The position numbers and the translations under genes were made by a program. From assembly GCA_021159385.1 (NCBI GenBank), contig JAGGRW010000001.1, forward strand, positions 1 to 45,154: a stretch of DNA of 45,154 nucleotides, read 5' to 3'. Origin of the DNA: Methanosarcinales archaeon. GTDB taxonomy: Archaea; Halobacteriota; Methanosarcinia; Methanosarcinales; Methanogasteraceae. Below the pieces are notes generated by a model. It was not told where the DNA came from. It was given only the letters and a program-made list of their open reading frames with translations, and ran no database searches. Of this stretch, positions 1,842 through 26,532 are shown piece by piece. Each line of letters opens with the position of its first letter. Position 1 is the first letter of the stretch.

Positions 1842-3356
1842 TCACGCGGCACCCCCATTCCCGCTCAAGAATTGAACCATCTTCGTTCCGAGCGTCGCAA
1901 GATCAACGACAGCGGCATGTGCGGGCACGGGCATAAGGTTCACCCGCTTCTGAAAATCAGTCTGTGACTGCCATGTTCCGGCATTGATCACGGTAACGCC
2001 TTTGTATCGATCAACGCCCACGGTATGCACATGCCCGCAGTGCAGGATGTGCGGAATCGGATCGATCACGAAATGATCCGTTGCTTCAGGTGCGATCGAG
2101 ACCCTGCCGCCGTAGATGGGCGCAAGATGCCTGCGTCGCAGCATTTCGATCATGACCTTGTCCGGCTGCTGGTAGCTCATCCTGGGTATGGTTGCGATCA
2201 GATCATCCATCGACCGCCCGTGGTAGATCAGAATTTTTACGCCGCCAATCTCGATTAACGCAGGATTGCCGACGAAGACCACATCATCACGAAACATCGA
2301 CGTGACCTTCTCGGGCAGCGCGGGTTGCGGCTCCGCCTGCCTCACTGCATCGTGGTTACCTGGTGCGATTACGATCCTGACATCTCTTGGCACTCGCTTG
2401 AGATACGCTGCTGCGCGTCTGTACTGCTCATACACGTCAGAGATCTCCAGTTCCTGCTCCTGACCCGGATATATGCCAACTCCATCGACTATATCACCAG
2501 CTATTATCAGGTAACGCACCGATTCGGAATTATCTCCGAGCCAGTCGATGAATTCGCAGAACGCGTCCTCCAGAAACGTGTTGCTCCCGACATGCATATC
2601 CGATATCAGGACCGCGCTGCCTGCGCAATCCCCGCGGTTCCTACCATCTCCGTTCCCATTTCCATCCCCCTTTCCGTTCGTATTCCAATTTCCACTTCCA
2701 TTCCCATTTCCGCCGCCGGGAAGCGTCTGGTTGTACCGGTTCGGTATGTCCGGCAGAACGATCCCTTTCGCGATCATCAGCCTGCCGTCTCTCGTGAGTG
2801 AACCCGTAACCCCAATCACCTCATCGCAGACGACCCCCAACGCCGCATTCCACAGATCGCGATCGGATGGCATGACGAGAACCGAGAACGAACCTGTCGG
2901 ATCCTCCAGTTGCAGAAGCTTGTTGCCGTTCGCCGTCGTTTTGATATCGGAGACCATGCCGATTATCGAGATGCTGTCATACTCCCTTCCGGTTCGCCCC
3001 ACGCGCAGCGATTCGATCGGGCGCGCTGTCACCCTGCCACGAATGATTCCGGAAAGCCGCGTGTAGCGGTCGCGGAAGTACCGCACAAACTCGGAATACT
3101 CGCCGACGCATGTCGATTCATCGCTGATGTCGCTCATGATGGTGACTTCAGGAAGCGGTCGTTCCGGGCGCCTCTCCTTCTTCGGTTCGAGTTTGACATG
3201 CTCCCTCCCGACCACGAGTACCGAGTCGTCCAGCGACCTGAGCACCTGTTTCATGACCGTGTCAGGTGCCGGGTACGCGCCGATCAGCGCGACCGCATCC
3301 GGACTGATCTGGTATCCGGCGTTCGCAAACTCCTCCACAATCAGCGATTCATGCAT
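1842..3356 (-). CDS. DNA polymerase II (PolD) small subunit DP1
   Basis: 504 aa with an OB-fold-like middle and a C-terminal calcineurin-like phosphoesterase domain (ISDMHVGS, GDIVDG, GNHD, HCGHVH), as in archaeal DP1. It carries a G/N/D-rich insert at aa 214-243. Confidence 0.9.
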   Translation of the reverse strand: MHESLIVEEFANAGYQISPDAVALIGAYPAPDTVMKQVLRSLDDSVLVVGREHVKLEPKKERRPERPLPEVTIMSDISDESTCVGEYSEFVRYFRDRYTRLSGIIRGRVTARPIESLRVGRTGREYDSISIIGMVSDIKTTANGNKLLQLEDPTGSFSVLVMPSDRDLWNAALGVVCDEVIGVTGSLTRDGRLMIAKGIVLPDIPNRYNQTLPGGGNGNGSGNWNTNGKGDGNGNGDGRNRGDCAGSAVLISDMHVGSNTFLEDAFCEFIDWLGDNSESVRYLIIAGDIVDGVGIYPGQEQELEISDVYEQYRRAAAYLKRVPRDVRIVIAPGNHDAVRQAEPQPALPEKVTSMFRDDVVFVGNPALIEIGGVKILIYHGRSMDDLIATIPRMSYQQPDKVMIEMLRRRHLAPIYGGRVSIAPEATDHFVIDPIPHILHCGHVHTVGVDRYKGVTVINAGTWQSQTDFQKRVNLMPVPAHAAVVDLATLGTKMVQFLSGNGGAA

Positions 3357-3520
3357 TGGTTTGTACTTGTCCCGGGCAGAGATAAAACTTTATGTGGCGT
3401 CTGCCAGATGGTCTCCCGAAACGTTTTTTGGCGAGATATGCCCTCTCTCGCGCTGGATCGTGTCGCGGGAAATTGGCTGGTTCCTTTTGCGCCCTCGCGT
3501 TAAAACACAAATTTTAACAG

Positions 3521-4761: not shown

Positions 4762-4906
4762 CTAATTTGGATAGATGAATCGGTGGGGCTCAAGTATATG
4801 TGCACGAGATCGGGTGAAGGCGAAGGCATCAGCCAGCGTCAGAGCAGAATTGAAGCGATCCGGAGTTACCGCAACCCATATACTCAATCAAGTCATTCTA
4901 ACTGTC

Positions 4907-5986
4907 ATGACTGACTGGATCGCGTGGGACGTGATCGAGACTGCTCTCGCAAAGACCAGATGCATGCTCTTTGAGCCGTTCGATCTGAAAAAATGGGTGA
5001 AACTTGCAGTGATACTCCTTTTCATCGGCGGTTATGGCGGTTATGGCGGCAATGGTGGCGGTGGCGGTCCGGGTTATAGATACAACCTACAGGACAACGG
5101 TTTTGGAGACTTTGGCGATCATTCTGAGTTTAATACAGCAATCGAAGAGGCGATAGTCAAAATCTCGGCCTTCGTTGACCAGAACGTGATTGCAATCATA
5201 CTTGCAGTAATTTCCATCCTCCTGACAATACTCCTGCTCTCCTACATCTCGAGCATCATGGAGTTTGCGCTCGTCGAGTCCGTTGTGACGAACCGGGTCA
5301 TGCTCCGGGCATACATCAGAAACAACATGGGGAACGCACTGCAGCTCTTCGCGTTGAGGTGGACACTTACTATAATATTCCTGATCGCAATTATCCTGTC
5401 GCTCCTGCCAGCGATTCCCACGATACTGGATGGCAACTTTGGGATTACGATTCTCGGATCGATCTTTTTACTTTTCATTGTTATTATAATTAGTAGCATA
5501 ATCTTTGCAGTGATCGGTTCGTTCATCAACATGGCGATCCCGGTGATGCTCTACGAGGATGTGGGTGTGATTGGTGCGCTCTTACGAGTGATCGGCACAG
5601 CAAAGCACAGCGTTTCGCAGCTACTGGTCTACTGGGTTCTGCGGATCATACTGAGTATAGTGGTCTCAATCGTTGCAGCGATTGCAGGAATCATCGTCTT
5701 TCTGCTCGCAATGCTCATACTGGTGCCGATCGGCGTTGTGATATATTATCTGATTCTCGCAATGCCGGCGGTGACCGGCTTTCTTGACCCGGTATTTCTC
5801 ATCGGGATCGGATTGTATATTTTTGTAGCCATACTGGTAATCCTATTTTCAGTCACCCTTGCAACCGTGCCGCTTCCCGTATTTATGAAGTACCATACAC
5901 TCCTCTTCCTCCGGGACTGGTACGCAGATATCGTGCCGTTCCATGAAGATGTTCCATTACCCGCTCCTTTATCGCAACAGGCATAA
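4907..5986 (+). CDS. Polytopic membrane protein of unknown function with a Gly/Tyr-rich loop
   Basis: Multiple long hydrophobic segments follow MLFEPFDLKKWVKLAVILLFIGG and the low-complexity loop GGYGGYGGNGGGGGPGY. The ATG at 4907 is preferred over the ORF-track start at 4775, whose N-terminus is Arg/Lys/Ser-rich. Confidence 0.6.
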   Translation: MTDWIAWDVIETALAKTRCMLFEPFDLKKWVKLAVILLFIGGYGGYGGNGGGGGPGYRYNLQDNGFGDFGDHSEFNTAIEEAIVKISAFVDQNVIAIILAVISILLTILLLSYISSIMEFALVESVVTNRVMLRAYIRNNMGNALQLFALRWTLTIIFLIAIILSLLPAIPTILDGNFGITILGSIFLLFIVIIISSIIFAVIGSFINMAIPVMLYEDVGVIGALLRVIGTAKHSVSQLLVYWVLRIILSIVVSIVAAIAGIIVFLLAMLILVPIGVVIYYLILAMPAVTGFLDPVFLIGIGLYIFVAILVILFSVTLATVPLPVFMKYHTLLFLRDWYADIVPFHEDVPLPAPLSQQA

Positions 5987-7103
5987 GCGGGATGTTCGGA
6001 ACATCTGCGTTGCCCGGTTTTACCATCACGTGAATGAACCTCGGACCATCGCTCTCGTACAAATTCTCAATTGCTGACCGCAGTTCCTGCTCGGTATGCA
6101 CTTTTCCGGTCTCGTTAATCCCGGCGCTCACCGCCATCAATTCCAGGTCCAGTTGCATGTACGCGTTCGTCAGTTGATCTCCTGTGCTGCCGAGTGTGCC
6201 ATTGTCAAGGCAGAAGATAGAGAGATTCGTTGGACGTTCCGCTGCCAGCACCGGCAGCACATTTGATGCCAAAAGACTCCCATCGCCATCGAGAACGATT
6301 ACCTCTCTTGCCGTTGCAAGCGAGATTCCAAAGCCTACGGACGACGCCTGGCTATAGCTCCCCAGCATATAGAAATTGAGATCCCGGTCACCTGCGTCGT
6401 ACAGTTCCTTACTCGGGATGCCGATATTGGATACGACAGCCTCCTCGTGCAGATATTCCGATATGATCTTTATCGCGTCATATCTCGTCATTACGGGTTC
6501 GCGAATTACTCGTTCGTATCTCAAGCGTGAGATTCGCCCCCTCTCCGGAAATCGCTCTGCGGTTGTGCTCTCAGCGCGCTCCACCTTGTCTTCTTCCACC
6601 CCTGCCCAGGCTTTCGGAGATATCAGGGCAACGGAGGGCGTGTTGCCGTCGTACGCGGCTTCGATGACCTCATCCACCATGCCGATCTCGGACGGCTCTT
6701 CTATCACCGTGCAAGGAATCTTCCACACCCGCAGCGCATCCGGGAGAACGCTGTTGAACGGAATCTGTGCAGGTATTTTCTCGTCGTAAAACCCGCGCCA
6801 ACTGGCAATTATCGGCAACGGCAGCTCGTAAGTTACGGAAAGAGAAAGTAACGCGTTGAAACAGTTGCCCAAGCCCGAACTCTGGATAGCAATCGCAGGT
6901 CTTCCGCCTGCAAGGTATACGCCCGCGCCGATGCCGATTCCGTCCTCCTCCCTTATTATCGGTATCTCGCGGAGCTCCGGATCAGAGTGCAGGAGATAAA
7001 AGAGATCCTTTGCTTTATCACACGGAACTGTCGCAACAATATCGATTTTGTTCTTTTTGAGTATCTTTATGACCTTCTCTTCAATCTCGTACATGTTACT
7101 CAC
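5883..7103 (-). CDS. comDE: Sulfopyruvate decarboxylase, fused alpha-beta (ComD-ComE)
   Basis: The N-terminal half matches ComD (DIVATVPCDKAKDLF, REEDGIGIGAGVYLAGGRPAIAIQSSGLGN, IPAQIP). The C-terminal half matches ComE, a TPP-binding module (VLDGDGSLL...CLDNGTLGSTGDQ). It is the last gene of the com operon. Confidence 0.9.
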   Translation of the reverse strand: MSNMYEIEEKVIKILKKNKIDIVATVPCDKAKDLFYLLHSDPELREIPIIREEDGIGIGAGVYLAGGRPAIAIQSSGLGNCFNALLSLSVTYELPLPIIASWRGFYDEKIPAQIPFNSVLPDALRVWKIPCTVIEEPSEIGMVDEVIEAAYDGNTPSVALISPKAWAGVEEDKVERAESTTAERFPERGRISRLRYERVIREPVMTRYDAIKIISEYLHEEAVVSNIGIPSKELYDAGDRDLNFYMLGSYSQASSVGFGISLATAREVIVLDGDGSLLASNVLPVLAAERPTNLSIFCLDNGTLGSTGDQLTNAYMQLDLELMAVSAGINETGKVHTEQELRSAIENLYESDGPRFIHVMVKPGNADVPNIPLMPVAIKERVMEHLHGTARYLRTSPGGRGVYGTS

Positions 7104-8136
7104 CTACCGCAACGCCGTACTTCATGCAGACGTCTTCAAACTCGCTATAAATTAGATCAGGAACTTCCACGCCGCTTATGCTCTTCTTCTCGTTGAGCTC
7201 TTCCCGTTCCCCAGGAAACATGGCGCAATCGTCTTGGACCTCCCGCACCAGTTCACCTGACCTTGATTTGAAAAGATCGAGATCGGTGAAACTCGAAATG
7301 TTTATCGCGATGAAGAAATCCCCTTTTGTGCATTTTTCCAGTGTTGTCGTGCCTCTGACGTCTGTTCCACTCGCAGCATTGGTAAGAGGTCCACAGAGAA
7401 GATCGATAACATAGGATAATCCGTAACCCTTATACCCGAAGTCTTTTCCGCCGATTGGAAGAAGACTAAAGAGTTCTTCGGGATTAACCGTTGGATTTCC
7501 GTCCCTGTCAAGAGCGCAATCATCCGGAAGCAGCTCATTTTCGCTGATAGCTCGTGACACCTTTCCTCTTGCGATATTGGTCGTTGCTGCGTCGAATACG
7601 ACCGGACGCTCCATAGTCGGTGCCGCAACCGAGATGGGATTTGTTCCGAGAACCGGGGTTTTTCCACCGAATGCTGCCATTGCTGGCTCCGTATTGCAGA
7701 ACACGATCCCGATCATCCCACTCAACGCTGCCATCTCTGAGTAGTAGCCAGCCATCCCAAAATGGTTCGTGTTATGCACTCCAACTGCTGCGATACCGCA
7801 ACTCCTCGCTTTTTCGATTGCAATCGTAATCGCCTTTGCGGCAACGACCATTCCCAGACCGCTGTTCCCGTTGATCAACGCCGAATTGGGCGACTCCCTC
7901 TCAATCGTTATCTCGGTCTTTGTCCTCTGAAGACCGTGCTCGATCGATGCGATCAATTTCGGGAATCTCATAATTCCGTGAGACCCAAAGCCCCTCAGTT
8001 CAGCTCTCAGAAGTACATCAGAGACCGTTCTTGCGTCTTCTTCCGGTGCGCCGAGTCTGATCAGAACCCGCTCCATCGCCAATCCGAGACTCTCTGGTCT
8101 GCACATCACTGTATCACCACAGTATCCCCTCACCAT
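7096..8136 (-). CDS. comC: (R)-2-hydroxyacid / sulfolactate dehydrogenase (Ldh_2 family, ComC)
   Basis: Ldh_2 (malate/L-sulfolactate dehydrogenase) family motifs are present (LRGFGSHGIMRFPKLI, NTNHFGMAGYY, GGKDFGYKGYGL). It lies between comB and comDE, and its start overlaps the comB stop as TAATG. Confidence 0.85.
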   Translation of the reverse strand: MVRGYCGDTVMCRPESLGLAMERVLIRLGAPEEDARTVSDVLLRAELRGFGSHGIMRFPKLIASIEHGLQRTKTEITIERESPNSALINGNSGLGMVVAAKAITIAIEKARSCGIAAVGVHNTNHFGMAGYYSEMAALSGMIGIVFCNTEPAMAAFGGKTPVLGTNPISVAAPTMERPVVFDAATTNIARGKVSRAISENELLPDDCALDRDGNPTVNPEELFSLLPIGGKDFGYKGYGLSYVIDLLCGPLTNAASGTDVRGTTTLEKCTKGDFFIAINISSFTDLDLFKSRSGELVREVQDDCAMFPGEREELNEKKSISGVEVPDLIYSEFEDVCMKYGVAVGE

Positions 8137-8786
8137 TACCCCAATATCACACCATCTTCCAGTACGGGAACGACATCGTATCTATCGATCTGCGAGATGA
8201 ACAAAACGTCCTTCGCATAGCCGATCTCGCCCAGATACCTTGCAGCGCGGGATTGTTGAACGGATCTCGCCAGGAATCCTTCGTCGATCTCAATGCCGTC
8301 ATTCAGGCTGCTGTAAAGTGCTATCGCAACCGCAAGGTCCTCTGTTACCCCATGCCTGCCGCCCACAGCCAATATCTCTGCGCTCTCGCCGGTCTTCTCG
8401 AGTCTGTTCCTGACAGCACTCAGGTTCAGGCTTGAGCTTATGAGCGCACAGTCCAGTCCGGTCAGTATCTCTGTCGAGTTGGTGGTTGTTAACGCGAGTC
8501 TTTCAATATCAGACCGTTTCAGGTACTGAAGTAACTCGACAGGCGAGTTTCCGATATCGAAATTATGGGATTTGACACCCCCGCGCTCGCCTGCAATCAC
8601 ACACCCCTCTTCTTTTAATCCAAACGCCGCTTCTTCGCTATCTACCGGAATTACCTCCCGAACACCGTTTGCAAGAGCCGTTATAATGGTTGAAGAGGCT
8701 CTCAAGACGTCGATCAGGACGCAGACGCGGTCAACGTGTCCGCCTCCACTCCCGAAGTCCCCGATGCTGATACTATACCCTGCCAA
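8136..8786 (-). CDS. comB: 2-phosphosulfolactate phosphatase
   Basis: ComB family signature VLIDVLRASSTIITALANG at about 216 aa, positioned between comA and comC. Confidence 0.85.
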   Translation of the reverse strand: MAGYSISIGDFGSGGGHVDRVCVLIDVLRASSTIITALANGVREVIPVDSEEAAFGLKEEGCVIAGERGGVKSHNFDIGNSPVELLQYLKRSDIERLALTTTNSTEILTGLDCALISSSLNLSAVRNRLEKTGESAEILAVGGRHGVTEDLAVAIALYSSLNDGIEIDEGFLARSVQQSRAARYLGEIGYAKDVLFISQIDRYDVVPVLEDGVILG

Positions 8787-9585
8787 GCGTATCCCCTCTG
8801 AGACCTCGTCTCAATGTTTCGAGCGGGATCACATCAGCAGGCGATATGTTTCCCAGACTGACGTCAATTCCGAATTCGAGTATCAAATAAACCTGCTGAC
8901 TCTTTATCGGCGCTTCAAAGAGAATATCTTCGATTCCGATGCCTTTTACCAGTCTTTCTGCCATATCCTCCCTGATGCCGCCAACACCATCGAATATGCC
9001 GATTCCCTTCCCGCTTTCTCTGGCTTCCATGATTACTTTGTCTGCTCCTGCTTTTAGATCGTTTTTCGCTTCGTGGATTCGCTCTTCCACAGTAAATTTC
9101 GCGTCTTCTGATGGATTTTTCTTGCCAACCTCTGAGAAGACCTCAAAACCTATTCTCTTTGCTTTTTCGATCATCTCCGTCCTTTCATCCATGCCAATCT
9201 CGATGGAACCGTCGGATATCTCAATTCCGTTGATGCCGATCCTTCTGGCGTATCCAAAGAATTCGTCCACCTTTCGTTTCAGGTATGCGATCTCAAAGAG
9301 CGTCCCGCCGTTGCTCACAATGATCCCATGCTCCCGGTATAACCGTATCTTCTTCTTGACCGCCTCTTCCGGGCAGATTCTTGGAGTGCCCCATCCGAGC
9401 TTGATCACGTCGATATACTCGCCTGCGCATTCCATCAGGTCGGATGCGGCGTTGTAACCAAGTCCCTTGTCCAGTACCATCGTAAGACCAGAGTCTCTTG
9501 GTTTTTTCGCCCGGTCCGGAATGTCTATCATCTCAAATGCTTTCGTTGCTGTTTCCGTTTCTACTTCCATTGCCATCGCCGTCAC
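8773..9585 (-). CDS. comA: Phosphosulfolactate synthase
   Basis: ComA family signature (KPRDSGLTMVLDKGLG...YIDVIKLGWGT) at 270 aa. Confidence 0.9.
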   Translation of the reverse strand: MTAMAMEVETETATKAFEMIDIPDRAKKPRDSGLTMVLDKGLGYNAASDLMECAGEYIDVIKLGWGTPRICPEEAVKKKIRLYREHGIIVSNGGTLFEIAYLKRKVDEFFGYARRIGINGIEISDGSIEIGMDERTEMIEKAKRIGFEVFSEVGKKNPSEDAKFTVEERIHEAKNDLKAGADKVIMEARESGKGIGIFDGVGGIREDMAERLVKGIGIEDILFEAPIKSQQVYLILEFGIDVSLGNISPADVIPLETLRRGLRGDTLGRV

Positions 9586-10847
9586 CTCAACGATCCAACC
9601 GGATCCGTCAGCGTAAATCTGCCGTCCAGAATCATCTCTTTCAATTCGTGTGATAACTCATCCGCTCTCGCCCTGTTTGACTGCCTCAATGTTATGGGAA
9701 CTTCGTTTCCCTCTACATCAATACGTCCCAGATTCCCTTTAAATGCGCGCTCCGGGCACAGATTCAAACAGGCTCCACAGTTAAAGCACCTCGCCCTATC
9801 GATTCCGCCCGACCGTAAAAACGCATTCGTGGGGCAGTAGCTCTCGACCTCGCAGTCGTCGCAACCGATGCATCTCGCTGGATCGAAGTATACTTCCATG
9901 TCAGTGCCCTGCCAGAGGTCTGCATAACTCCCCTCTGCAAACGGTATCCTGTCGTGGATGTCTGCTATCGGCAGTTTCACATCCTCATCCAGAATTTTGA
10001 GGTTGGGCAAGGTGTCTTCAGTAACTATGATCGGAACCGCTATGGACGTTATACAATCTACGCCGTCCGAAGTCCTGAACCCGCCCATGTATTCAGGGTT
10101 CATCCCGCGCATATCAGCAAACACCGAAAGATTCGGCTTTTCCGGGCTGCTTCTCGTTCCGGTGCCAATCACATACCCGGGAGCACCGTTTACCAGTATC
10201 CCGGTCCCAACACCAATTGATTCCCCCAGCGGATCGTTCTCCAGTGGATTGAGTTCACCACAGCCGCTCACAGAAAGTTCCTTGCAGGGTCCCTTCAATC
10301 CGTTGGCAACCGAGAAGATAGTCCTGACAGCATCGCTTCCCTTATTCAGGAATCCCGTATAGTTTTTAACGGAGGTTCTGGTCGTAATAATCCTTGCAAA
10401 CTCCAGATCTTCGAGTGTTACCGTGTTTTCGAATATTTTCCCACCGGAATCCACCTCCACATCGATCTCTCTTCCTTCCACCAGCTCCCGAAACAGGTGC
10501 CCACCACCGTATTCCATCGGTCCGGAGATGCTTGGCGTTGACCCGTACAGAACCGCCTCCACGATTCCAAGATTCTCGTTTGGACATGGACCAGGGGATG
10601 CAGGAACACCGTTTAATAAAACACTCTTTGCACGCGCAAACGCCCCCCTTCCGGCAACAGGTATCGATAAAACGGCTGCTGTGCCTGACATCACGCCGCA
10701 GGTGCCTGTTGTCACCACATCCACATCTCTCGGTGTAATGTCCTCTCCAGCTCTTAACATCCTTTTAAACTCTTCTGCGGTGTAAACAACCGCTTTTCCT
10801 TCCTTTATCCGGTCATTGACCTCTTTTGCGGTATTCATGATCTTCAC
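9582..10847 (-). CDS. comF: DUF39 (COG1900) sulfurtransferase-like protein with C-terminal 2x[4Fe-4S] ferredoxin domain; candidate sulfoacetaldehyde-to-CoM enzyme (MJ1681/ComF-like)
   Basis: The N-terminus is typical of DUF39 homocysteine-biosynthesis-type proteins (KAVVYTAEEF...DVVTTGTCGVMSGTAA...YGGGHLFRELVEG). The C-terminus has two CxxCxxCxxxCP motifs (CIGCDDCEVESYCP, CFNCGACLNLCP). It has a 4-nt overlap with comA. Confidence 0.7.
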   Translation of the reverse strand: MKIMNTAKEVNDRIKEGKAVVYTAEEFKRMLRAGEDITPRDVDVVTTGTCGVMSGTAAVLSIPVAGRGAFARAKSVLLNGVPASPGPCPNENLGIVEAVLYGSTPSISGPMEYGGGHLFRELVEGREIDVEVDSGGKIFENTVTLEDLEFARIITTRTSVKNYTGFLNKGSDAVRTIFSVANGLKGPCKELSVSGCGELNPLENDPLGESIGVGTGILVNGAPGYVIGTGTRSSPEKPNLSVFADMRGMNPEYMGGFRTSDGVDCITSIAVPIIVTEDTLPNLKILDEDVKLPIADIHDRIPFAEGSYADLWQGTDMEVYFDPARCIGCDDCEVESYCPTNAFLRSGGIDRARCFNCGACLNLCPERAFKGNLGRIDVEGNEVPITLRQSNRARADELSHELKEMILDGRFTLTDPVGSLR

Positions 10848-10852
10848 AATCG

Positions 10853-11491
10853 TTACAATCGTACATCCTCAATTCTGACATGGAATCCATCCTTTTTTTC
10901 CAGAATCATATTGATAACGCCGGTATGGCTCAAATCCATCATGCAGAACCCAGGTAAAAACCTCTGCCGCATTCCAAAGACCGGTTCCCTGGCAACAACC
11001 CTTGCAACACCAACAAAGCCAACTACGTGATACGCTTCGATCTCTTTTACCTGTTTGCCTCTCGAATGCGCTGGGCCAACAACGAAACACGTCAAGACTC
11101 CGGTTACGGCATTCGCATCGATCACCCTCATGACGTGCTGCACAGGACAGCCCGATCCCGCAGGTCTGCCGACAACGATGTCGTCCGGGACGATCCCCCA
11201 CTTCTCTACCAGATCCGGTCTGAATGGGAGTATTACCTTTCGTGCAGAGACCTCGCAGGGCATAGGATCAAGAATAAAATCGTAGTCCCTGCCAAGAATG
11301 TCTTTTCCGGAGTAGGAGTCCTTGTCTCGACACAATTCCGTCTCTTCGATTTTTTCTATCTCTTCTCTGTAAAAAGGGCAGTCAAAATAGGATTTTTCGC
11401 CTTTTTGTACCGATATGACAAACTCATCACAACTCTCCACACCACACAGCCCACAGTTTTTTCCGGGCGGATTCCAGCCCATTTCAGCCAT
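10853..11491 (-). CDS. Uncharacterised Cys-rich protein with an N-terminal putative Fe-S cluster motif
   Basis: 212 aa. The N-terminus PPGKNCGLCGVESCDEF...DCPFY resembles the four-Cys putative Fe-S domain found at the N-terminus of RnfB and CFeSP large subunits. I do not recognise the remainder. It lies 5 nt upstream of the comF-like gene. Confidence 0.55.
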   Translation of the reverse strand: MAEMGWNPPGKNCGLCGVESCDEFVISVQKGEKSYFDCPFYREEIEKIEETELCRDKDSYSGKDILGRDYDFILDPMPCEVSARKVILPFRPDLVEKWGIVPDDIVVGRPAGSGCPVQHVMRVIDANAVTGVLTCFVVGPAHSRGKQVKEIEAYHVVGFVGVARVVAREPVFGMRQRFLPGFCMMDLSHTGVINMILEKKDGFHVRIEDVRL

Positions 11492-11492
11492 T

Positions 11493-12209
11493 TCAGTCGC
11501 CCCGATACAGATAATCCGCGTCTTTCAGCCGTCGTATCACGCCAAAATGGTTCTGCCATCCAATATCCTTCTTGCCGATGCAGATCGTACAGACCCCGAG
11601 AGGCGGCTCTCCCTTCAACATCACCTTTTCCTTGTCTATGTCACTAAGGGAGTCTACAATCCTCATCAGATACCGCATCCCGGTCCCTTGCAGCGCATTC
11701 GTCTCTATGATATCGATGTTTCCGTTAACCTCCTTTATCTTCTCTCTGAATACCTCCCTCTCTGCCTGCGAAATCAGATCGATCTTCGTCACAACCGCGA
11801 GATCCGCGAGAGTTATCATCGGACCCATCTTGAGCGGAGTATTGGTTCCGCTGATCGCACTGAGCACCACTATGCCAAGACCCTCTGTGACGTACGGCGA
11901 ACACCGCAGGCACAAGCCCGCGCTCTCAACGATGAGAAGATCAGACTCGTTTTCTTCCGCCCAAACGACCGCATCCCTGAGAACCATGATGCCTGCGTGA
12001 TCCGGGCAGAGATCGCCAGAATAAATCTTTTTCGTCGGGATTCCAAACTCTTTTTTGAGTTCTTCGTCTTCAAAAGCTCTAACGACATCGATCTTCAGGT
12101 AGGATACCTTGTTTTTATTTTTGCTCTTGTTCTGCAAGCCATTTATGATCTGCCTCGTCAATGTGGTCTTTCCGGCAGATGGCGGACCAGCCACGATGAT
12201 CAATCGCAT
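11493..12209 (-). CDS. G3E-family P-loop GTPase, HypB/UreG-like metallochaperone candidate
   Basis: Walker A GPPSAGKT. LCPDHAGIMVLRD resembles the UreG CPH / HypB metal-binding segment. ESAGLCLRCSPY resembles HypB ENVGNLVCP. TKIDL is an NKxD-like motif. The tail contains an extra CTIC pair. Confidence 0.6.
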   Translation of the reverse strand: MRLIIVAGPPSAGKTTLTRQIINGLQNKSKNKNKVSYLKIDVVRAFEDEELKKEFGIPTKKIYSGDLCPDHAGIMVLRDAVVWAEENESDLLIVESAGLCLRCSPYVTEGLGIVVLSAISGTNTPLKMGPMITLADLAVVTKIDLISQAEREVFREKIKEVNGNIDIIETNALQGTGMRYLMRIVDSLSDIDKEKVMLKGEPPLGVCTICIGKKDIGWQNHFGVIRRLKDADYLYRGD

Positions 12210-12967
12210 ATCGATTCCCCCTGCCTTATTTTTTCCCTTATGACGTCCATCCTCTTATCCATCAACATTATCCTTTTGAGAATGGGTTTTTCTTCTTCTT
12301 TAGGTGTCAGAACCTTTTCCACAGCGCCATTCTTCATAACAATCCTTTTGTCAGACAACAGGGCTATGAGTGGGTCATGGGTGACGAAGACCACGGCTTT
12401 TCTGAACCTCTTTACGCACTCTATCACCCTGTCTTTGAATATACCGGCATTTTCGATCTCGTCAAGGAGTATTATGGGCGTATTGCTGATGAGGGTGGCG
12501 TCTGCTATCATCAAAGCTCTGGTCTGACCTCCTGACAACTCTGTCACCTTCATACCAGGCAATATCTTCTCCCCGGTGAATTCATTTGCCAGATCGATTG
12601 TTTTTTGGATCACCTCGCAATCAACCATCTTTCTCGCTCTTGCGTGCATTTCCAGGAAATTTTTTACGAGCAAATCCGCCAAACACTGTGTATTTTGAGT
12701 TATTGAAGCGATCGGCTTCTTTGAAGGGTCCCTTACGTACTCTTCAGGGGGATGCTCACCATTGACCAGAATCGTCCTGCCTGTTACCGTGTCGTGTTGA
12801 GCAAACATCTCGATATCGTTTATGAATGCGCTTTTTCCGGAACCAGTCGGACCGACGATCGAGATCGTTTCGCCGAGTGTGATAACGATGCTGCCGAAAT
12901 CTTCCGCTTCTCCGTCTTTCTTTCTGCCCGGGAGAATTGTGATCTCTTCTATCTCTGCATGTTTCAT
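12200..12967 (-). CDS. Soluble ABC-type ATPase with no transmembrane partner in the operon
   Basis: Walker A GPTGSGKS, Q-loop region QNTQ, signature LSGGQ, Walker B ILLDE and H-loop THD. No permease or substrate-binding gene is adjacent. It is the first gene behind a TATA-like box. Confidence 0.8.
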   Translation of the reverse strand: MKHAEIEEITILPGRKKDGEAEDFGSIVITLGETISIVGPTGSGKSAFINDIEMFAQHDTVTGRTILVNGEHPPEEYVRDPSKKPIASITQNTQCLADLLVKNFLEMHARARKMVDCEVIQKTIDLANEFTGEKILPGMKVTELSGGQTRALMIADATLISNTPIILLDEIENAGIFKDRVIECVKRFRKAVVFVTHDPLIALLSDKRIVMKNGAVEKVLTPKEEEKPILKRIMLMDKRMDVIREKIRQGESICD

Positions 12968-12988
12968 GGCTCTTCATTTAGATAGAGG

Positions 12989-12996
12989 ATTATAAA
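12989..12996 (-). promoter_or_regulatory. TATA-box-like element (TTTATAAT on the minus strand) upstream of the ABC-ATPase/com operon
   Basis: The plus strand reads attataaa at 12989-12996, 22-29 nt upstream of the ATG at 12967. This spacing fits a leaderless or short-leader archaeal transcript. Confidence 0.45.
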
Positions 12997-13043
12997 CATA
13001 TCACCATCACAACCCATCACCGCTCACCGTCGCCACTGCGCCG

Positions 13044-14147
13044 TCACGATTCCGGGTATCTCGCAACGATCTCGTGGTAGTCATCGAACCAGTATGCGCC
13101 AGGATTGCGCTTGAAGACGACGAAACTTCCGATCTGCGCCGGGTCTGCGGACTGATGGTACCTGAAGAAGATGTGCTGATCTGTCATTCCCGCGATCTCG
13201 ATCTTTCCTGTCGAATGCGACATGATCAATCTGGCGCGCTTGGCGAGACCTGCGCAGTCTGTAATCGACTGCTGGAATATCTCGTATGTCTCCTCGACCG
13301 GGACCGCGAAGGTCTTGTTGCCTGCGGTCGGACGGCACTGGAAGACGTAGTAGGGGGCGGCTCCGATGAACGAGAGTTTTTTGAGAAGCAGCGACAGGAC
13401 ACTGGGGTCGTCGTTGACCCCTCGTAGCACCGGCGTCTGGTTGGCGATTATCGCACCTGCCCGGATCAGGGAGTGCACAGCCGCAATGGCGACGTCTGTC
13501 AGTTCCGCAGGGTGATTGAACTGCGTCATCACATAGATCTTCTTTTCAGGAGTTGAGTACTTCCGCACCATTTCAAGGAGGGACGGATCATCAAGGATCC
13601 GATACGGATTAAACGCCGGAATCTTCGTCCCGATACGCAGGATTTTGACGTGGTCGATCTCCCGAAGCTCCCGTATTATCGTTTCCAGCTTGTTTGTGGA
13701 CAGCATCAGAGGATCCCCGCCGGTGATAAGGATGTTGGAGATCTCTTTGTGCGCACGGATGTACCCGATCCCGCCCGCGACATCACGGGAGATCTCGTCA
13801 TGACCGTCTATGAAAAGCCGCTTTCTGAAACAGAACCGGCAGTACCCACCGCACACATCAGTTATCAGAAGAACCGCAGTGGACTTGTATTTGTGTTGCA
13901 GACCCGGAACTCTCGTATACGCGTTCTCGTCTGAAGCGTCCAGTTGCCCCCATTCCTCAAGTTCACGTACGTCCGGTATTATAATGCGTCTTATTGGGTC
14001 GTGGGAATCGTCCCAGTCGATCAGATCGAGGTAGTACTCATTTGCACGGAAAGCGAACTTTTTGGTAACTTCTTTGAGTGCAACTCCTTCGTTGTCGTCG
14101 AGTCCGTGTATTTTTTCAATTTTTGTGGTGTATTTTGGCGTCTTCAT
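13044..14147 (-). CDS. KamA-family radical SAM protein (lysine 2,3-aminomutase-like)
   Basis: CGGYCRFCFRKR is the CxxxCxxC radical SAM motif in KamA context. Also present are HKYKSTAVLLITDVCG, ILITGGDPL and RIGTKIPAFNP. At 367 aa it is shorter than canonical AblA/KamA. Confidence 0.8.
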   Translation of the reverse strand: MKTPKYTTKIEKIHGLDDNEGVALKEVTKKFAFRANEYYLDLIDWDDSHDPIRRIIIPDVRELEEWGQLDASDENAYTRVPGLQHKYKSTAVLLITDVCGGYCRFCFRKRLFIDGHDEISRDVAGGIGYIRAHKEISNILITGGDPLMLSTNKLETIIRELREIDHVKILRIGTKIPAFNPYRILDDPSLLEMVRKYSTPEKKIYVMTQFNHPAELTDVAIAAVHSLIRAGAIIANQTPVLRGVNDDPSVLSLLLKKLSFIGAAPYYVFQCRPTAGNKTFAVPVEETYEIFQQSITDCAGLAKRARLIMSHSTGKIEIAGMTDQHIFFRYHQSADPAQIGSFVVFKRNPGAYWFDDYHEIVARYPES

Positions 14148-14332
14148 GACTCATTCCTCGCTTTTTGAAGAGATATTATCAAGAAAATTCAATGTCGCCG
14201 CATGCGCGTGGTATTCACATTAAATACAGCACCTACTTAAAGGTTTTACCGGCACACTTGAGACTTTTACGAACCAATCCCTCCCGCGCCTCCGAAGATG
14301 TTAAAAGGAAGGCGGCGTATCCAGTGTGACAG

Positions 14333-14707
14333 GTGGCTCGGATGATCGAAATAACAGAAGAAGATTTTAATATAAGTAAAGTAATAGAAGAGGCAGAGAA
14401 TCCGGATGTCGGCGCAGTCGTCACGTTTCTTGGTATCGTCAGGGACGACGGGATCAGTGGCATGGAGATTGCGGTGCATGAAGGCGCAGCCGCGGAGGAA
14501 CTCGGCAAAATACGGGACGAGGCGATGGAACGCTTCGATATCAGGTCTCTTGACATCCGTAACCGCAAGGGGACGCTTCCCATTGGTGGAAAGATACTGC
14601 TCGTCGTCTGCGGTGCTCCGCACAGGAAGGATGCGTTTCTCGCATGTGAATACGTGGTAGACGAACTGCACAAGAGAGTTCCGATACAGAGGAAGGAGCT
14701 ACCGTAA
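14333..14707 (+). CDS. moaE: Molybdopterin synthase catalytic subunit (MoaE)
   Basis: VGAVVTFLGIVRD, RKGTLPIGGKILLVVCGAPHRKDAFLACEYVVDELHKRVPIQRKE matches the MoaE pattern (HR..AF....id.lK...P.wK.E). The ORF opens at a GTG (14333); the ATG at 14342 is the likelier start. Confidence 0.75.
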   Translation: MARMIEITEEDFNISKVIEEAENPDVGAVVTFLGIVRDDGISGMEIAVHEGAAAEELGKIRDEAMERFDIRSLDIRNRKGTLPIGGKILLVVCGAPHRKDAFLACEYVVDELHKRVPIQRKELP

Positions 14708-22251: not shown

Positions 22252-25200
22252 CTATGTCCCACCCGCAGCATTGAGGATCATGAGAGCGTCGAGAGATGTG
22301 ACTTTGTTGTCGCCGCTGACGTCAGCGGCGGTGAGCGTTGCGGCATCGCACTGGCGGCTGCCGGCTGCGATTGCAAGCGCGATCGCGGCGTCCGCGGGGG
22401 TGACGCTGCCGTCGGAGTTGAGGTCGCCACGTACCTCAACCTCACCGACTGATAGGTAACGGTTGGTGTTTGTGCCCGGGTTGTACGTATCAGTCTGGTG
22501 GGCTTGCATGCCATTGATCCGGAAGGTTACGTCGTCGCCCACATCACACTCACTGCCCGCAACGAGCAGTTTTGGGTCGAATGTGCCAGGACCGCCATAC
22601 ACCCCGATCAAGGTGGTTACGAAGCTTCCTTTCTCAGTTCCATTGATCGCGGCTATGATCTCGGTTCCTGCCGGGGCAGGGTCGCCATCTATTGTGATCG
22701 CGCCATAATATGCCCGAGGAAGCTGTGGCACTTCTGACGAGGATGCAGCCATGAGAGTTGTCATCTCCTCCTCTGCTGCCGATGCCGTTGCCGCCGCCTG
22801 TGCGCCGCCATCGAGTCCACCCAGTTCTCCGGCATCGGTCATGTAGAGCCAGTAACCATTGGTCGGGTACATGGGATTGTCTTCATCGTGGGAACTTCCG
22901 GTCTCGTCATCGTTTACGATCTCGGGCTTGTAGCTCTGGGAGGGGGCGTCAAACCCGATCAGGTGGGTCCATTCGGACTCAACTGTAGTGAGTGTCGAGT
23001 CCGCCGTGACCGGCACCCTTGACGAGTGCCCGATCGCGTTCCAGTTCGCCTCCAGATTCTTGGTCGGCGGGGTGGACGGTGGATTGGTATCGAAGTTGAG
23101 GCTCACAATCTCATCGGTTGTTGAGTAGACCCAGATGCCATCCAGCGTCATCACTATGTCGCTGCCACTCATCATGTTCCATGCACAACCATCGTAGAGG
23201 TAAATGGGGTTACCTCCGGTCTCAACACCTCCAAAGACCTGCTGCACCTCATCGTCCGAGTTATCCAGCATGGCAGGTGTTGCGACAAAGTTCCAGCCCG
23301 ACGAAAGGTTGATACTATCCTTATGAAGCCCGATTACGAAAGTCTCATCGGAGATGTCTGAGTCTTTGTTATCAATGACATCGGTTACCACCACCCGCGC
23401 CCGTGCTTCTTCAGTTTCCACATCCGGAACCGCCCATGCATAAGTCCCGGTATTGGCGATCCCATCAGCTATAGTTGTCCAGTTGTAGCCATCGTCGGTG
23501 GAATAGTAGAGGCTGATCGGTGCTGCCACAAGATTACCTGATGCACTCCAGATGATCTGTGCCTCTTCCCCGCCAATGAGTATCTCCTCTCCGTTGGGTG
23601 AGGTTATCTCAACAGCGGGCGCAGTGTACGGGTATTCCTCGTAGACGATGGAGAGATCGGTGATTGTGGGACTCTTCGCCTTTTCTTCGTCACTGTGGAG
23701 GGACGCTCTGTATCTCCAGACCTTCCCGTTCTGTTCGGAGTAGATCGCCTGACCGTGCGGATCAGTGTAATATGTATCAGGAGTGCCGTCGGGACCAAGG
23801 TACACAAAATTGGTGCCATCATTGCTGGTGCCGATCTGGAATCTGGCACCGGTTCCGCCCGGTTGTGTTACCGGGTTCCAGCTTATGTTGAGCCATCTGA
23901 CGATGTTGCTGCCGTTCACACTGAATTTTTCGGAAGCGAACGCCCCGTACTCAGAGTACCCGGAACCCCCGTATGCGTAAGCCGCACCCGCGTTGCTCCC
24001 GCCATCGTCGTTGTAACGTGCGCCAACGATGACCTCATCGCAACCATCCCCGTTCACATCTCCGGCTGATGCTACAGCGGAGCCGAATTGATCTCCTGCT
24101 GCCTCGCCTGCTGCAGTCCACGAGGCAGTCGCGCTGATGCCTGTTACAGAGCCAAGATAGACGTAAGCCGCACCCGCGTTGTTTCCGCCATCGTCGTTGT
24201 AACATGCGCCAACGGCGATGTCACCACATCCATCTCCATTCACATCCCCGGCTGATGCCACAGACTTGCCAAAGCAATCATAAGCAATCTTGCCCGTTGC
24301 ATTCCACAAAGGAATTGTGTTGAGACCAGAGGCAGAGCCATGATAGACGTAAGCCTTTCCGGCGTTGTTGCCGCCGCAGCCGTTGTGATACGCGCCGATG
24401 ATAATATCGGAATAGCTATCCCCGTCTACATCTCCGGCTGTTGCTACAGAATAACCAAAGTAATCGTCCGCGTCCTCGCCTGTCTCAGTCCACGAGGCGG
24501 TTGTGATGAGCCCTGTTGCAGAGCCATGATAAACGTAAGCCTTCCCGGCATTGCTATAGTCACAATTGCTACGGTAAGCGCCCACGATAACATCTGAATA
24601 ACCATCTCCATTCACGTCCCCTGCTGACGCTACGGAGTAGCCAAAGTAATCGCCTGCTACCTCTCCAGCCACAGTCGATGGGTCAGTTGTTACAAGCCCG
24701 GAGGCAGAGCCAAAGTAGAGATATATCTTCCCTGAATCACTGCCGCTGCAATCGTTTTGATGGGCACCAACAATAACGTCAGAGTAACCATCACCGTTCA
24801 CATCTCCTGCTGACGCTACGGAGTAGCCGAAGTAATCACCTGCTACCTCGCCCGTCGCAGTCCACGAGGCAGTTGTGTTGAGCCCTGTTGCAGAGCCGAG
24901 ATAGACGTAAGCCTTCCCGGTATCGTTGCCGCAGCTATCGTTTTGATGGGCACCAACGATAACGTCAGAGTAACCATCATTGTTCACATCCCCGGCTGAT
25001 GCCACAGAGTGACCGAAGTGATCTCCCATACCTTCTCCTGTCGCAGCCCATGCGGCAATCGCGCTGATGCCTGTTGCAGAGCCATGATAAACGTAAGCCG
25101 CACCCGCGTCGTTGTAAGCGCCGACGATAACGTCAGAGTAACCATCACCGTTCACATCTCCTGCCGATGCTACGGACCAGCCGAAGTAATCCGATGCCGC

Positions 25201-26532
25201 TCCGCCGGTCGCAGTCCATTTAACTGCTTCCATAGCCCAGAGATCGAGATTCTGGTAGACGTATACCTTCCCGGCACAATAGCCGCCATCGTCGTTGTAA
25301 CATGCACCAACGATGACATCATCATAGCCATCACCGTTAACGTCCCCTGCCGATGCCATGGACTTTCCAAATTGATCTCCTGCTACCTCGCCTGCTGCAG
25401 TCCACGAAGCAGTCGTTAAAAGTCCTGAAGAAGAACCGAGGTAGAGGTACACCTTCCCTGAATCAGTGCCGCCACAATCGTTGTAATGTGCGCCAACGAT
25501 AACGTCAGAGTAGCTATCTCCGTTCACATCCCCTGCCGATGCCACCGAGTATCCAAAGTAATCGACCTCCGACTCACCGGTCGCAGTCCACGGGTCAGTT
25601 GTTACAAGCCCGGCGGCAGAGCCGAGATAGACGTAAACTTTCCCTGAATCACTACCGCCGCAATCGTTCTGATAGGCACCAACAATGACATCATCGTAGC
25701 CATCTCCGTTCACATCCCCGGCTGTTGCTACAGAGCAGCCAAAGTTATCCTTCGACGTCTCACCGATCGCAGTCCACGGGTCAGTTGTTACAAGCCCGGA
25801 TGATGAACCGAGATAAACGTAAGCTTTTCCGGCGTTCTCGCCGCCGCAATCGTTATGATGGGCGCCGACGATGATATCATCGTAGCCATCTCCGTTCACA
25901 TCCCCGGCTGTTGCCATAGACTTTCCAAAGTGATCTCCTGCTGCATCACCAGTCGCAGTCCATGCAGCTGTCGTGCCGAGACCTGACGCTGAGCCGAGAT
26001 ATACGTAAACTTTCCCTGAATCACTACCACCACAATCGTTCCGATATGCGCCAACGATGACATCATCGTAGCCATCTCCGTTCACATCCCCGGCTGTTGC
26101 TACAGAGCAGCCAAAGTAATCGACTGCCGACTCACCGGTCGCAGTCCACAAGGCGGTCGCGCTGATGCCAGTTGCAGAGCCGAGATAGACGTAAGCCTTC
26201 CCGGCGTTGTTGCCGTTATCATCATTCCGGTATGCGCCAACGATGACATCATCGTAGCCATCTCCGTTCACATCCCCGGCTGATGCTACAGAGCAGCCAA
26301 AGTTATCATTCAACGCCTCACCGATGTCATGCCACTGGTTGCCCAAGCCGCGGGCTAATTTCAGCGTGCCATCATCTACTTCCACCATGAACGTCTCGCC
26401 GTTCTCAAAGTCCGCATCAGTCGTCTGTGTCCACGTATCCGCGCCTGCCGGCAGTGCCGCAAGCCAAATCGCCGCGATCAGGGCTGCCACCCATATTCTA
26501 AAAATCCAGTTCACTTTGCTTCTCGATATCAT
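22252..26532 (-). CDS. Giant secreted FG-GAP (integrin-alpha-type) repeat protein with C-terminal dockerin
   Basis: N-terminal signal-like segment (IWVAALIAAIWLAALPAGA). It has 13 consecutive FG-GAP repeats (FGxSVASAGDVNGDGYxDVIVGA...GKAYVYxGS), a non-repetitive beta-rich middle, and a C-terminal pair of dockerin type I repeats (GDLNSDGSVTPADAAIAL / ADVSGDNKVTSLDALMIL). Confidence 0.9.
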   Translation of the reverse strand: MISRSKVNWIFRIWVAALIAAIWLAALPAGADTWTQTTDADFENGETFMVEVDDGTLKLARGLGNQWHDIGEALNDNFGCSVASAGDVNGDGYDDVIVGAYRNDDNGNNAGKAYVYLGSATGISATALWTATGESAVDYFGCSVATAGDVNGDGYDDVIVGAYRNDCGGSDSGKVYVYLGSASGLGTTAAWTATGDAAGDHFGKSMATAGDVNGDGYDDIIVGAHHNDCGGENAGKAYVYLGSSSGLVTTDPWTAIGETSKDNFGCSVATAGDVNGDGYDDVIVGAYQNDCGGSDSGKVYVYLGSAAGLVTTDPWTATGESEVDYFGYSVASAGDVNGDSYSDVIVGAHYNDCGGTDSGKVYLYLGSSSGLLTTASWTAAGEVAGDQFGKSMASAGDVNGDGYDDVIVGACYNDDGGYCAGKVYVYQNLDLWAMEAVKWTATGGAASDYFGWSVASAGDVNGDGYSDVIVGAYNDAGAAYVYHGSATGISAIAAWAATGEGMGDHFGHSVASAGDVNNDGYSDVIVGAHQNDSCGNDTGKAYVYLGSATGLNTTASWTATGEVAGDYFGYSVASAGDVNGDGYSDVIVGAHQNDCSGSDSGKIYLYFGSASGLVTTDPSTVAGEVAGDYFGYSVASAGDVNGDGYSDVIVGAYRSNCDYSNAGKAYVYHGSATGLITTASWTETGEDADDYFGYSVATAGDVDGDSYSDIIIGAYHNGCGGNNAGKAYVYHGSASGLNTIPLWNATGKIAYDCFGKSVASAGDVNGDGCGDIAVGACYNDDGGNNAGAAYVYLGSVTGISATASWTAAGEAAGDQFGSAVASAGDVNGDGCDEVIVGARYNDDGGSNAGAAYAYGGSGYSEYGAFASEKFSVNGSNIVRWLNISWNPVTQPGGTGARFQIGTSNDGTNFVYLGPDGTPDTYYTDPHGQAIYSEQNGKVWRYRASLHSDEEKAKSPTITDLSIVYEEYPYTAPAVEITSPNGEEILIGGEEAQIIWSASGNLVAAPISLYYSTDDGYNWTTIADGIANTGTYAWAVPDVETEEARARVVVTDVIDNKDSDISDETFVIGLHKDSINLSSGWNFVATPAMLDNSDDEVQQVFGGVETGGNPIYLYDGCAWNMMSGSDIVMTLDGIWVYSTTDEIVSLNFDTNPPSTPPTKNLEANWNAIGHSSRVPVTADSTLTTVESEWTHLIGFDAPSQSYKPEIVNDDETGSSHDEDNPMYPTNGYWLYMTDAGELGGLDGGAQAAATASAAEEEMTTLMAASSSEVPQLPRAYYGAITIDGDPAPAGTEIIAAINGTEKGSFVTTLIGVYGGPGTFDPKLLVAGSECDVGDDVTFRINGMQAHQTDTYNPGTNTNRYLSVGEVEVRGDLNSDGSVTPADAAIALAIAAGSRQCDAATLTAADVSGDNKVTSLDALMILNAAGGT
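23960..26301 (-). repeat. Tandem coding repeats of about 186 nt (13 FG-GAP units)
   Basis: Repeat periodicity is visible in both the protein and the DNA. Near-identical strings such as ccatctccgttcacatccccggctgttgctacagagcagccaaag recur several times. Confidence 0.85.

Follow-up and report, generated by a model that had tools for sequence, protein, structure and literature searches.

The window analyzed in this study is a stretch of 45,154 nucleotides (nt) from a Methanosarcinales archaeon of the Methanogasteraceae (assembly GCA_021159385.1, contig JAGGRW010000001.1, positions 1 to 45,154). It harbors eight contiguous minus-strand genes that encode an ABC ATPase, a G3E GTPase, an Fe-S protein of the COG2000 family, and five enzymes of coenzyme M (CoM) biosynthesis, namely, Mmp16/ComF, ComA, ComB, ComC, and ComDE. 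All biological methane formation and anaerobic alkane oxidation depend on CoM, and the first three genes, referred to below as the trio, are the subject of this work. The ABC ATPase gene (12967-12200) is the first of the eight, starts with an ATG at 12967, and overlaps the GTPase gene (12209-11493) by 10 nt; a gap of 1 nt separates the latter from the gene of the cysteine-rich COG2000 protein (11491-10853), and 5 nt lie between this gene and that of Mmp16/ComF (10847-9582; GTG start). Downstream, the genes for ComA (9585-8773), ComB (8786-8136; TTG start), ComC (8136-7096), and ComDE (7103-5883; GTG start) overlap their respective predecessors by 4, 14, 1, and 8 nt, with GTG and TTG start codons as derived from the open reading frames (ORFs). 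The ORF list and the sequence thus bear out the eight-gene arrangement and the overlaps proposed by an earlier reading of this DNA made by a model from the letters alone (the sequence-only reading).

The identity of the CoM genes was established by profile searches against Pfam and NCBIfam. Mmp16/ComF (methanogenesis marker 16), which consists of a COG1900 domain and a ferredoxin domain, scored 520 bits with TIGR03287 (cut-off, 364) and 314 bits with PF01837. ComA, the phosphosulfolactate synthase that uses phosphoenolpyruvate and sulfite, matched PF02679 and reached 314.5 bits with TIGR03849 (cut-off, 280), and the fused sulfopyruvate decarboxylase ComDE exceeded the cut-offs of both TIGR03845 (203 bits) and TIGR03846 (229 bits). 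Whereas these three proteins lie above curated cut-offs, the remaining two were assigned at the Pfam level only: the 2-phosphosulfolactate phosphatase ComB (PF04029, 137 bits) stayed below the cut-offs of the NCBIfam models, and the ComC-like sulfolactate dehydrogenase of the Ldh_2 family (PF02615, 347 bits) obtained 355 bits with NF040650 (cut-off, 500). None of the trio proteins was among the defined ComA-ComE/ComF pathway enzymes in these searches, as the sequence-only reading had stated. Mmp16 has been identified as the main CoM synthase, ComF (Chadwick et al. 2025, PLoS Genet, PMC12068725).

The ABC ATPase (255 amino acids) is a soluble protein with a single nucleotide-binding domain (PF00005, 56 bits; cut-off, 25). 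All ABC motifs were universal in 29 representatives, including Walker A K45, Q91, signature residues S145 and Q148, Walker B D169 and E170, and H197, and so were the family-specific residues E22, D51, E53, D59, R64, H108, and R112. Matches to the transporter ATPase models of NCBIfam were weak and generic (~40 to 59 bits), far below every transporter cut-off, and the sulfate/molybdate ModC structure 3d31 was matched with 55 bits. An assignment as SufC was rejected, as the NCBIfam ranking gave no specific SufC affinity. No gene for a permease or binding protein was adjacent in the window, and none recurred in ~100 archaeal and bacterial loci. The protein thus belongs to the ABC superfamily but, judged by these loci and scores, not to an ABC transporter system, and the description in the sequence-only reading, an ATPase with all ABC motifs that lacks a membrane partner, was confirmed.

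The GTPase (238 amino acids) is a member of the G3E family (PF02492, cobW/HypB/UreG, 52.8 bits; cut-off, 20.7) and contains a GPPSAGKT P-loop as well as ESAG and TKID motifs. Its scores with the HypB equivalog model TIGR00073 (67.1 bits; cut-off, 121.2) and with that of UreG (32 bits; cut-off, 204) remained below the thresholds. In an alignment with Methanocaldococcus jannaschii HypB (2hf8), C68 and H71 coincided with the "CH" of HypB, and C100 and C103 flanked its second cysteine. These four residues and C207, C210, and H221, which form a C-terminal CxxC...H motif, were universal among representatives. There were no hyp, hydrogenase, or urease genes next to the GTPase in the loci examined. 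Judged by score and genomic context, the protein is not HypB proper but a HypB-like GTPase of a separate subfamily, as far as its sequence indicates; the metallochaperone features noted earlier are supported by the family match, the motifs, and the Cys/His residues at HypB positions.

The COG2000 protein (212 amino acids) carries an N-terminal 4Cys domain (PF04060, 36.6 bits; cut-off, 23), in which C13, C16, C21, and C38 (CxxCxxxxC...C) are universal and form a predicted 4Fe-4S site, in agreement with the Cys4 motif that had been recognized in the third protein. A Foldseek comparison of the protein with PDB matched only this N terminus (~40 residues) to the corrinoid Fe-S protein CFeSP (4djd_C; probability, 0.95; identity, 35%). 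The full-length model had a mean predicted local distance difference test (pLDDT) score of 79.7, and its C-terminal 155 residues were modeled as an all-beta domain with a pLDDT of 94.6. A PDB fold search with this C-terminal domain gave no match (best E = 0.24), and the modeled domain is therefore novel, with no solved structural relative. A transfer of function from structure was rejected, because only the 4Fe-4S N terminus had found a counterpart. C115, H119, C183, and H189 (Cys2His2) together with R84 and R109 were universal across all three subfamilies of the trio described below. The family is small, with 135 representatives at 50% identity in 1.84 billion proteins. Pfam and NCBIfam searches detected no siroheme NIR_SIR, PAPS_reduct fold, adenosine 5'-phosphosulfate (APS) reductase, or molybdopterin domain in the trio proteins, which thus do not belong to known sulfite-forming or -reducing enzymes (Dsr/Fsr/Dsr-LP, reductases of APS or 3'-phospho-APS [PAPS], or Mo sulfite dehydrogenase).

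A scan of the GTDB species genomes with a COG2000 alignment retrieved 291 relatives, of which the best 80 loci were compared; further loci from protein look-ups brought the total to ~100, and the trio and its neighbors were mapped by tblastn. The order ABC ATPase, GTPase, COG2000 was the same in essentially all of these loci and is therefore far beyond chance expectation. Median gaps were -4 nt between the ABC ATPase and GTPase genes, +3 nt between the GTPase and COG2000 genes, and -4 nt between the COG2000 and Mmp16 genes, the last value being based on 56 loci. A neighbor-joining tree of the concatenated trio contained three coherent subfamilies. The three genes are thus translationally coupled and have evolved together through three subfamilies in archaea and bacteria, and their proposed status as a real, co-inherited module tied to the synthesis of CoM or other sulfonates was substantiated.

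Across these ~100 loci, the trio tracks the sulfite-consuming entry enzyme and not the thiol-forming final enzyme. Among archaeal loci with sufficient flank, ComA or cysteate synthase was found in 35 of 35, whereas Mmp16 and ComDE were each present in 30 of 35. The PALP neighbors tested were cysteate synthases (540 to 617 bits; cut-off, 325), and bacterial ComA scored 343 bits, which is above the cut-off. The range of contexts is illustrated by the archaeal operons. The window and its closest relative contain the order trio-Mmp16-ComA-ComB-ComC-ComDE, and most Methanomicrobiales as well as two Thermoplasmata/Methanomassiliicoccales contain trio-Mmp16-cysteate synthase-ComDE. In Methanococcoides, the order is cysteate synthase-trio-ComD-ComE with a convergent Mmp16 gene directly after it; another locus (L093) has cysteate synthase-trio, again with Mmp16 convergent directly after, and ComD/E ~8 kb downstream. 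Anaerobic methanotrophic archaea of the ANME-2 group showed cysteate synthase-ComDE, two further genes, and then the trio. The minimal arrangements are those of Methanothrix, with cysteate synthase-trio alone, and of Methanobacterium, with ComA-trio alone, where ComA and the ABC ATPase overlap by 4 nt and no further com gene is nearby.

In Bacillota (Pelotomaculum, Peptococcia, Desulfotomaculaceae, and Dethiobacter), we found ComA-ComB-trio beside GerA spore germination genes, ComA a few kilobases away, or the trio alone. ComA was the sole recurrent neighbor (8 of 20 loci within 10 kb), and neither Mmp16 nor ComDE was detected in the flanks of any of the 20 loci. Three Bacteroidota-like loci (L090 to L092), from genomes of ~6 Mb, have the trio directly after a HisKA_3/LuxR-type two-component pair and upstream of a major facilitator superfamily (MFS) transporter or an F-type ATP synthase operon; Bacteroidota make sulfonolipids from cysteate (PMC11211663). 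In the third subfamily (L094 and L096 to L102), which comprises two separate lineages, a NifS/IscS-type cysteine desulfurase (425 to 470 bits with TIGR03402) is inserted between the GTPase and the COG2000 protein, on short contigs in which no com genes are visible. NifS-like genes 3 to 6 kb upstream of the trio in three Methanoregula-type loci were judged to reflect lineage synteny and were not counted as part of the cluster.

In the tree, the Bacillota clade was sister to the Methanomicrobiales-type clade and the Bacteroidota-like sequences were sister to Methanobacterium, a placement compatible with horizontal transfer of the module as a unit. The trio of the window groups with Methanomicrobiales-type and not with Methanosarcinales-type sequences. 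A further observation concerns the entry enzyme, since the window and its closest relative use ComA-ComB-ComC, and in nearly all relatives with the most similar trios the corresponding place in the operon is taken by cysteate synthase, as if the sulfite-consuming entry enzyme had been exchanged in situ and the remaining operon conserved. Two other observations relate to flanking genes. The 5 to 7 kb between trio and ComA in Desulfotomaculaceae L077 (12615-14242) and Pelotomaculum L070 (10719-15508) encode a glutamate-synthase-like flavin mononucleotide protein, a GFO/IDH/MocA oxidoreductase, and an MFS transporter, and L077 additionally has a split thiamine diphosphate (TPP) enzyme including its central domain; this interval may represent an extended bacterial cluster of sulfonate genes. 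In Methanobacterium L082, a gene 2 kb upstream of ComA-trio (2277-3410, minus strand) encodes a fusion of a PAPS-reductase-like protein with a ferredoxin domain; it is absent from that position in the other Methanobacterium locus, L081.

A TATA-like box, TTTATAAT, was located by sequence reading and a pattern scan at 12996-12989 on the minus strand, 22 to 29 nt upstream of the ABC ATPase ATG, a spacing that would imply a leaderless or short-leader transcript. The sequence-only reading had reported this box at the same distance, but its claim that it was the only one did not strictly hold, because the 3'-terminal part of comC contains a second hexamer, TTTATA, at 7151-7146 (minus strand), which precedes the GTG start of comDE by 43 nt and may be an internal promoter. 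An Rfam search of positions 5500-14500 returned no RNA element, and a sigma-70 promoter and terminator scan, a model that is not relevant to archaea, gave counts at or below the shuffled expectation. The 3' end of a gene for a KamA-family radical SAM protein (14147-13044, minus strand; lysine/glutamate 2,3-aminomutase-like; TIGR00238, 209 bits) lies 76 nt upstream of the ABC ATPase gene. It was rejected as a ninth operon member and is probably outside the trio module, because a homologue adjoins the trio in none of 80 related loci. Elsewhere in the window, an ORF for a DUF7544 membrane protein (4775-5986, plus strand) converges with comDE, with an overlap of ~100 nt at the 3' ends provided that both ORFs were called correctly, and positions 22252-26532 (minus strand) encode a protein of 1,426 amino acids with many FG-GAP repeats and a C-terminal dockerin type I domain, an architecture of the surface or cell-cell interaction type that is unusual in an archaeon.

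Considering the association with the entry step, we propose, with a probability of roughly one in three, that the trio forms one soluble, co-inherited module of sulfonate (C-SO3-) biosynthesis that provides ComA or cysteate synthase with sulfite. These two enzymes are unrelated, and sulfite is their only common substrate. Both archaeal CoM routes begin with the addition of sulfite to a carbon skeleton, and sulfite is toxic to methanogens (PMC3448663). CoM synthesis needs sulfite, and Dsr-LP has been put forward as a candidate source of it in methanogens, although some species lack this protein (PMC3448663). In the proposed mechanism, the COG2000 protein would be the metalloprotein that performs the redox chemistry and handles sulfur, the GTPase would load the Cys/His metal site of this protein, and the ABC ATPase dimer would provide conformational or energetic drive. 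The input would be sulfide or, where free sulfide may be scarce, a cysteine-derived persulfide from a NifS-like enzyme; the presence of the cysteine desulfurase in subfamily III is the reason to suppose that reduced sulfur enters the system. The output would be the inorganic sulfur substrate of the first step, most likely sulfite formed in situ for the entry enzyme, and the role of the module would parallel that inferred for yitBA-yisZ beside the comA/comB homologues of Bacillus subtilis. We envisage an accessory or alternative supply route that is not universal. Graham et al., in work of 2002 and 2009, are said to have obtained ComA and cysteate synthase that were active as recombinant proteins, and since Mmp16 is in addition reported to form CoM in Escherichia coli, the known pathway enzymes do not appear to depend on the trio. 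A module that is conserved, tracks the sulfite-using enzyme, recruits a desulfurase in one subfamily, and contains a domain of novel fold is a concrete candidate for the missing sulfite step and, if it were the sulfite source, would represent a categorically new system.

Several points weigh against a role in sulfite supply. The argument for sulfite formation is drawn from gene context and pathway logic alone. No trio protein resembles a known sulfite-forming enzyme in Pfam or NCBIfam, so sulfite supply would need a new mechanism, and the conversion of sulfide to sulfite is a six-electron oxidation that is, to our knowledge, unprecedented for a protein this small. Mmp16 is the immediate neighbor of the trio in most Methanomicrobiales, with a 4-nt overlap. 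Neither ComA nor cysteate synthase is present within 10 kb in 12 of the 20 Bacillota loci or in the Bacteroidota-like loci, and the latter contain no com genes at all within this distance of the trio. The idea that the trio and Dsr-LP/Fsr are alternative sulfite sources with complementary distributions was rejected, as Methanomicrobia carry 1 to 4 Dsr-LP in addition to the trio. A search with the Methanococcoides protein retrieved Methanolobus, Methanomethylovorans, Methanosalsum, ANME-2, and Methanothrix homologues down to 52% identity, but no Methanosarcina-named homologue was among the matches listed. This apparent absence argues that the module is not a universal sulfite source, as Methanosarcina makes CoM from sulfide. 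Finally, metallocluster-assembly machines are classically built from a G3E GTPase, an ABC ATPase, and a cysteine desulfurase, and this set of parts fits the assembly machine considered below equally well. A bolder form of the sulfite proposal is somewhat less probable: here, the trio would be the missing anaerobic sulfite source, an Fe-S metalloenzyme of new fold that is assisted by nucleoside triphosphate (NTP) and converts sulfide or persulfide to sulfite for ComA or cysteate synthase, and horizontal transfer would have distributed it among methanogens, Bacteroidota, and Bacillota, the last including some syntrophs. A variant in which the trio reduces sulfate or thiosulfate directly is less likely.

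The strongest competing explanation, itself only tentative, is a dedicated machine for metallocluster or Fe-S assembly, or for sulfur relay, which would serve a different enzyme, encoded within the com cluster or elsewhere, and not a sulfite-forming activity of COG2000. The desulfurase or sulfide would be the sulfur donor, the GTPase the metal donor, the ABC ATPase a SufC-like energizer, and COG2000 the scaffold or carrier, while the linkage with com genes would reflect co-regulation with the synthesis of CoM or other sulfonates. The roles of HypB/UreG/CobW, SufC, and NifS/IscS in metallocluster and sulfur systems are well established, and each component family of the trio thus plays such a role in characterized systems. 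The desulfurase gene inserted in subfamily III, the conserved HypB-type ligands, the additional universal CxxC...H of the GTPase, the Cys2His2 set of COG2000, and the Bacteroidota-like and many Bacillota trios without com genes within 10 kb all agree with this explanation. However, no candidate client is conserved beside the trio other than the com genes, and for the com enzymes that are conserved as neighbors no requirement for special metal centers is known; ComA uses Mg, and cysteate synthase uses pyridoxal 5'-phosphate. Furthermore, the ABC ATPase shows no specific affinity to SufC, its generic transporter matches being in the range of 40 to 59 bits, and no SufB/D, NifU, or IscU-like scaffold was found in any locus. 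The trio hence differs from SUF, NIF, and ISC systems, also in that a desulfurase occurs in subfamily III only and the cluster in the window has none. The sequence-only reading had, as a working hypothesis, assigned the maturation or activation of, or the delivery of sulfur to, the ComF-like protein (Mmp16) or ComDE, i.e., the terminal thiolation step, to the trio. It is plausible that the trio handles metal, Fe-S clusters, or sulfur, and the inserted desulfurase reinforces this view, but we consider these two clients unlikely. It is true that Mmp16 follows COG2000 directly in the window, in Methanomicrobiales, and in Methanomassiliicoccales (median gap, -4 nt in 56 loci) and is convergent directly after the trio in Methanococcoides and L093, that it is an Fe-S enzyme requiring a sulfur donor and two electrons, and that a cysteine desulfurase would suit the role of sulfur donor. 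Nevertheless, the idea is weakened by the contexts in Methanothrix and Methanobacterium, where the trio occurs with no Mmp16 or ComDE nearby, by those in Bacteroidota-like genomes, and by the Bacillota, with hits to neither protein in any of 20 loci and with ComA and ComB as partners. ComDE is a TPP enzyme with no known need of maturation. Expression of Mmp16 in E. coli reportedly leads to CoM formation, and the Methanosarcina acetivorans protein is reported to be functional in vivo (PMC12068725). The trio is not among the listed neighbors of the M. acetivorans cs-comDE-MMP16 cluster, and no Methanosarcina-named homologue was among the listed matches, which further weakens the case for ComF or ComDE as clients.

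In the M. acetivorans delta-MMP16 strain without CoM, the "GTP-binding protein" MA4556 was upregulated by ~3.4 log2 and MA4558 by ~8.4 log2, alongside the induced cs and comDE genes (PMC12068725 S4 Table). We did not treat MA4556 as a trio member, because its listed neighbor MA4555 is a type III RuBisCO; MA4558, also listed as a neighbor, is a cobalamin-dependent protein. A regulatory function, in which the trio would be a sensor or regulator adjusting sulfonate synthesis to the availability of sulfide, sulfite, or metal, for example by means of an NTP-dependent switch with a redox-sensitive Fe-S protein, is in our view decidedly improbable. Fe-S domains and G3E GTPases can serve as sensors or switches, and a two-component system is directly upstream of the trio in the Bacteroidota-like loci, but the three proteins contain no DNA-binding or signaling domain, the novel domain has a strongly conserved Cys2His2/Arg set of catalytic appearance, and the operon position and translational coupling suggest stoichiometric co-production with biosynthetic enzymes. 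Least probable are an ATPase that energizes an ABC importer (of CoM, sulfonate, sulfate, or metal) with membrane parts encoded elsewhere and a function of the trio in anti-phage defense. The best ABC ATPase matches are indeed nucleotide-binding domains of transporters, ModC 3d31 (55 bits) included, yet genes for a permease or binding protein are lacking beside the trio in the ~100 loci, and the scores are far below transporter family cut-offs. PADLOC returned weak hits to mad3 (58 bits, residues 140 to 227) and mad8 (18 bits), which cover only generic ATPase segments, and none for COG2000; given the biosynthetic context and the lack of a mobile element or defense island, these hits were not meaningful, and the defense reading was rejected. 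Taken together, these data favor sulfite supply to ComA or cysteate synthase as the tentative function of the trio. Even if this reading were wrong, attention moves away from ComF maturation, and the system extends to bacteria that appear to make sulfolactate and offers a new combination of G3E GTPase, ABC ATPase, and Fe-S protein with universal Cys/His sites that can be mutated.

The co-localization of the trio with Mmp16 is already published for several methanogen orders, and the window is one more instance. The set of an ATPase, a Ni-binding GTPase, and COG2000 was noted beside CoM genes with the comment that its "putative role remains unknown" (Chadwick et al. 2025, Fig 2B, PMC12068725). 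That report concerns the same three gene families and the same co-localization with Mmp16 and genes of the sulfoacetaldehyde pathway but does not include bacterial homologues, entry-enzyme-only contexts, the desulfurase subfamily, the novel fold, or the apparent absence from Methanosarcina. New here are the bacterial distribution, the entry-enzyme-only contexts, the desulfurase subfamily, the universal Cys/His sites, and the finding that the COG2000 C-terminal domain has no structural relative. A full-text literature search for COG2000 yielded no other relevant paper, and no characterized system was found to match the combination of a soluble ABC ATPase, a HypB-like GTPase, and a 4Fe-4S/novel-domain protein.

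The individual components nevertheless resemble parts of known systems. The GTPase shares with HypB and other G3E proteins (UreG, CobW/ZigA, and MeaB) the P-loop G3E fold, the ESAG and TKxD motifs, and the positions of the Cys/His metal site, and would be expected to bind metal at its dimer interface in a GTP-dependent manner. It differs from HypB in that it has CxxC in place of a single Cys, contains the extra universal CxxC...H at the C terminus, and is always paired with the ABC ATPase and COG2000, never with hydrogenase or urease genes. The N terminus of COG2000 is similar in sequence and fold to the low-potential electron-entry domain of the CFeSP large subunit (AcsC/CdhE) and to the N-terminal domain of RnfB, whereas the remainder of the protein is unrelated and lacks a TIM-barrel or B12 domain. 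With SufC/SufBC2D and SufS/NifS, the trio has in common a soluble ABC ATPase that lacks a membrane partner and is encoded beside Fe-S proteins, as well as a desulfurase in subfamily III; it differs by the lack of a SufB/D scaffold, by a desulfurase that is of the type I NifS/IscS-like kind and confined to one subfamily, and by the additional G3E GTPase. A parallel in gene arrangement is found in B. subtilis, in which yitBA-yisZ encode sulfate activation/reduction paralogues (ATP sulfurylase, APS kinase, and PAPS reductase). As in the ComA-ComB-trio loci of Bacillota, ComA/ComB homologues are clustered with an accessory set in a spore former, but the trio lacks sulfate activation/reduction folds and the analogy is thus positional, not homologous. 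For both the yitCD genes (ComB/ComA homologues) and the neighboring yitBA-yisZ operon, a function in phosphosulfolactate synthesis has been inferred (PMC517825), and a sulfite supply by dedicated genes next to comA/comB would therefore have a precedent in position.

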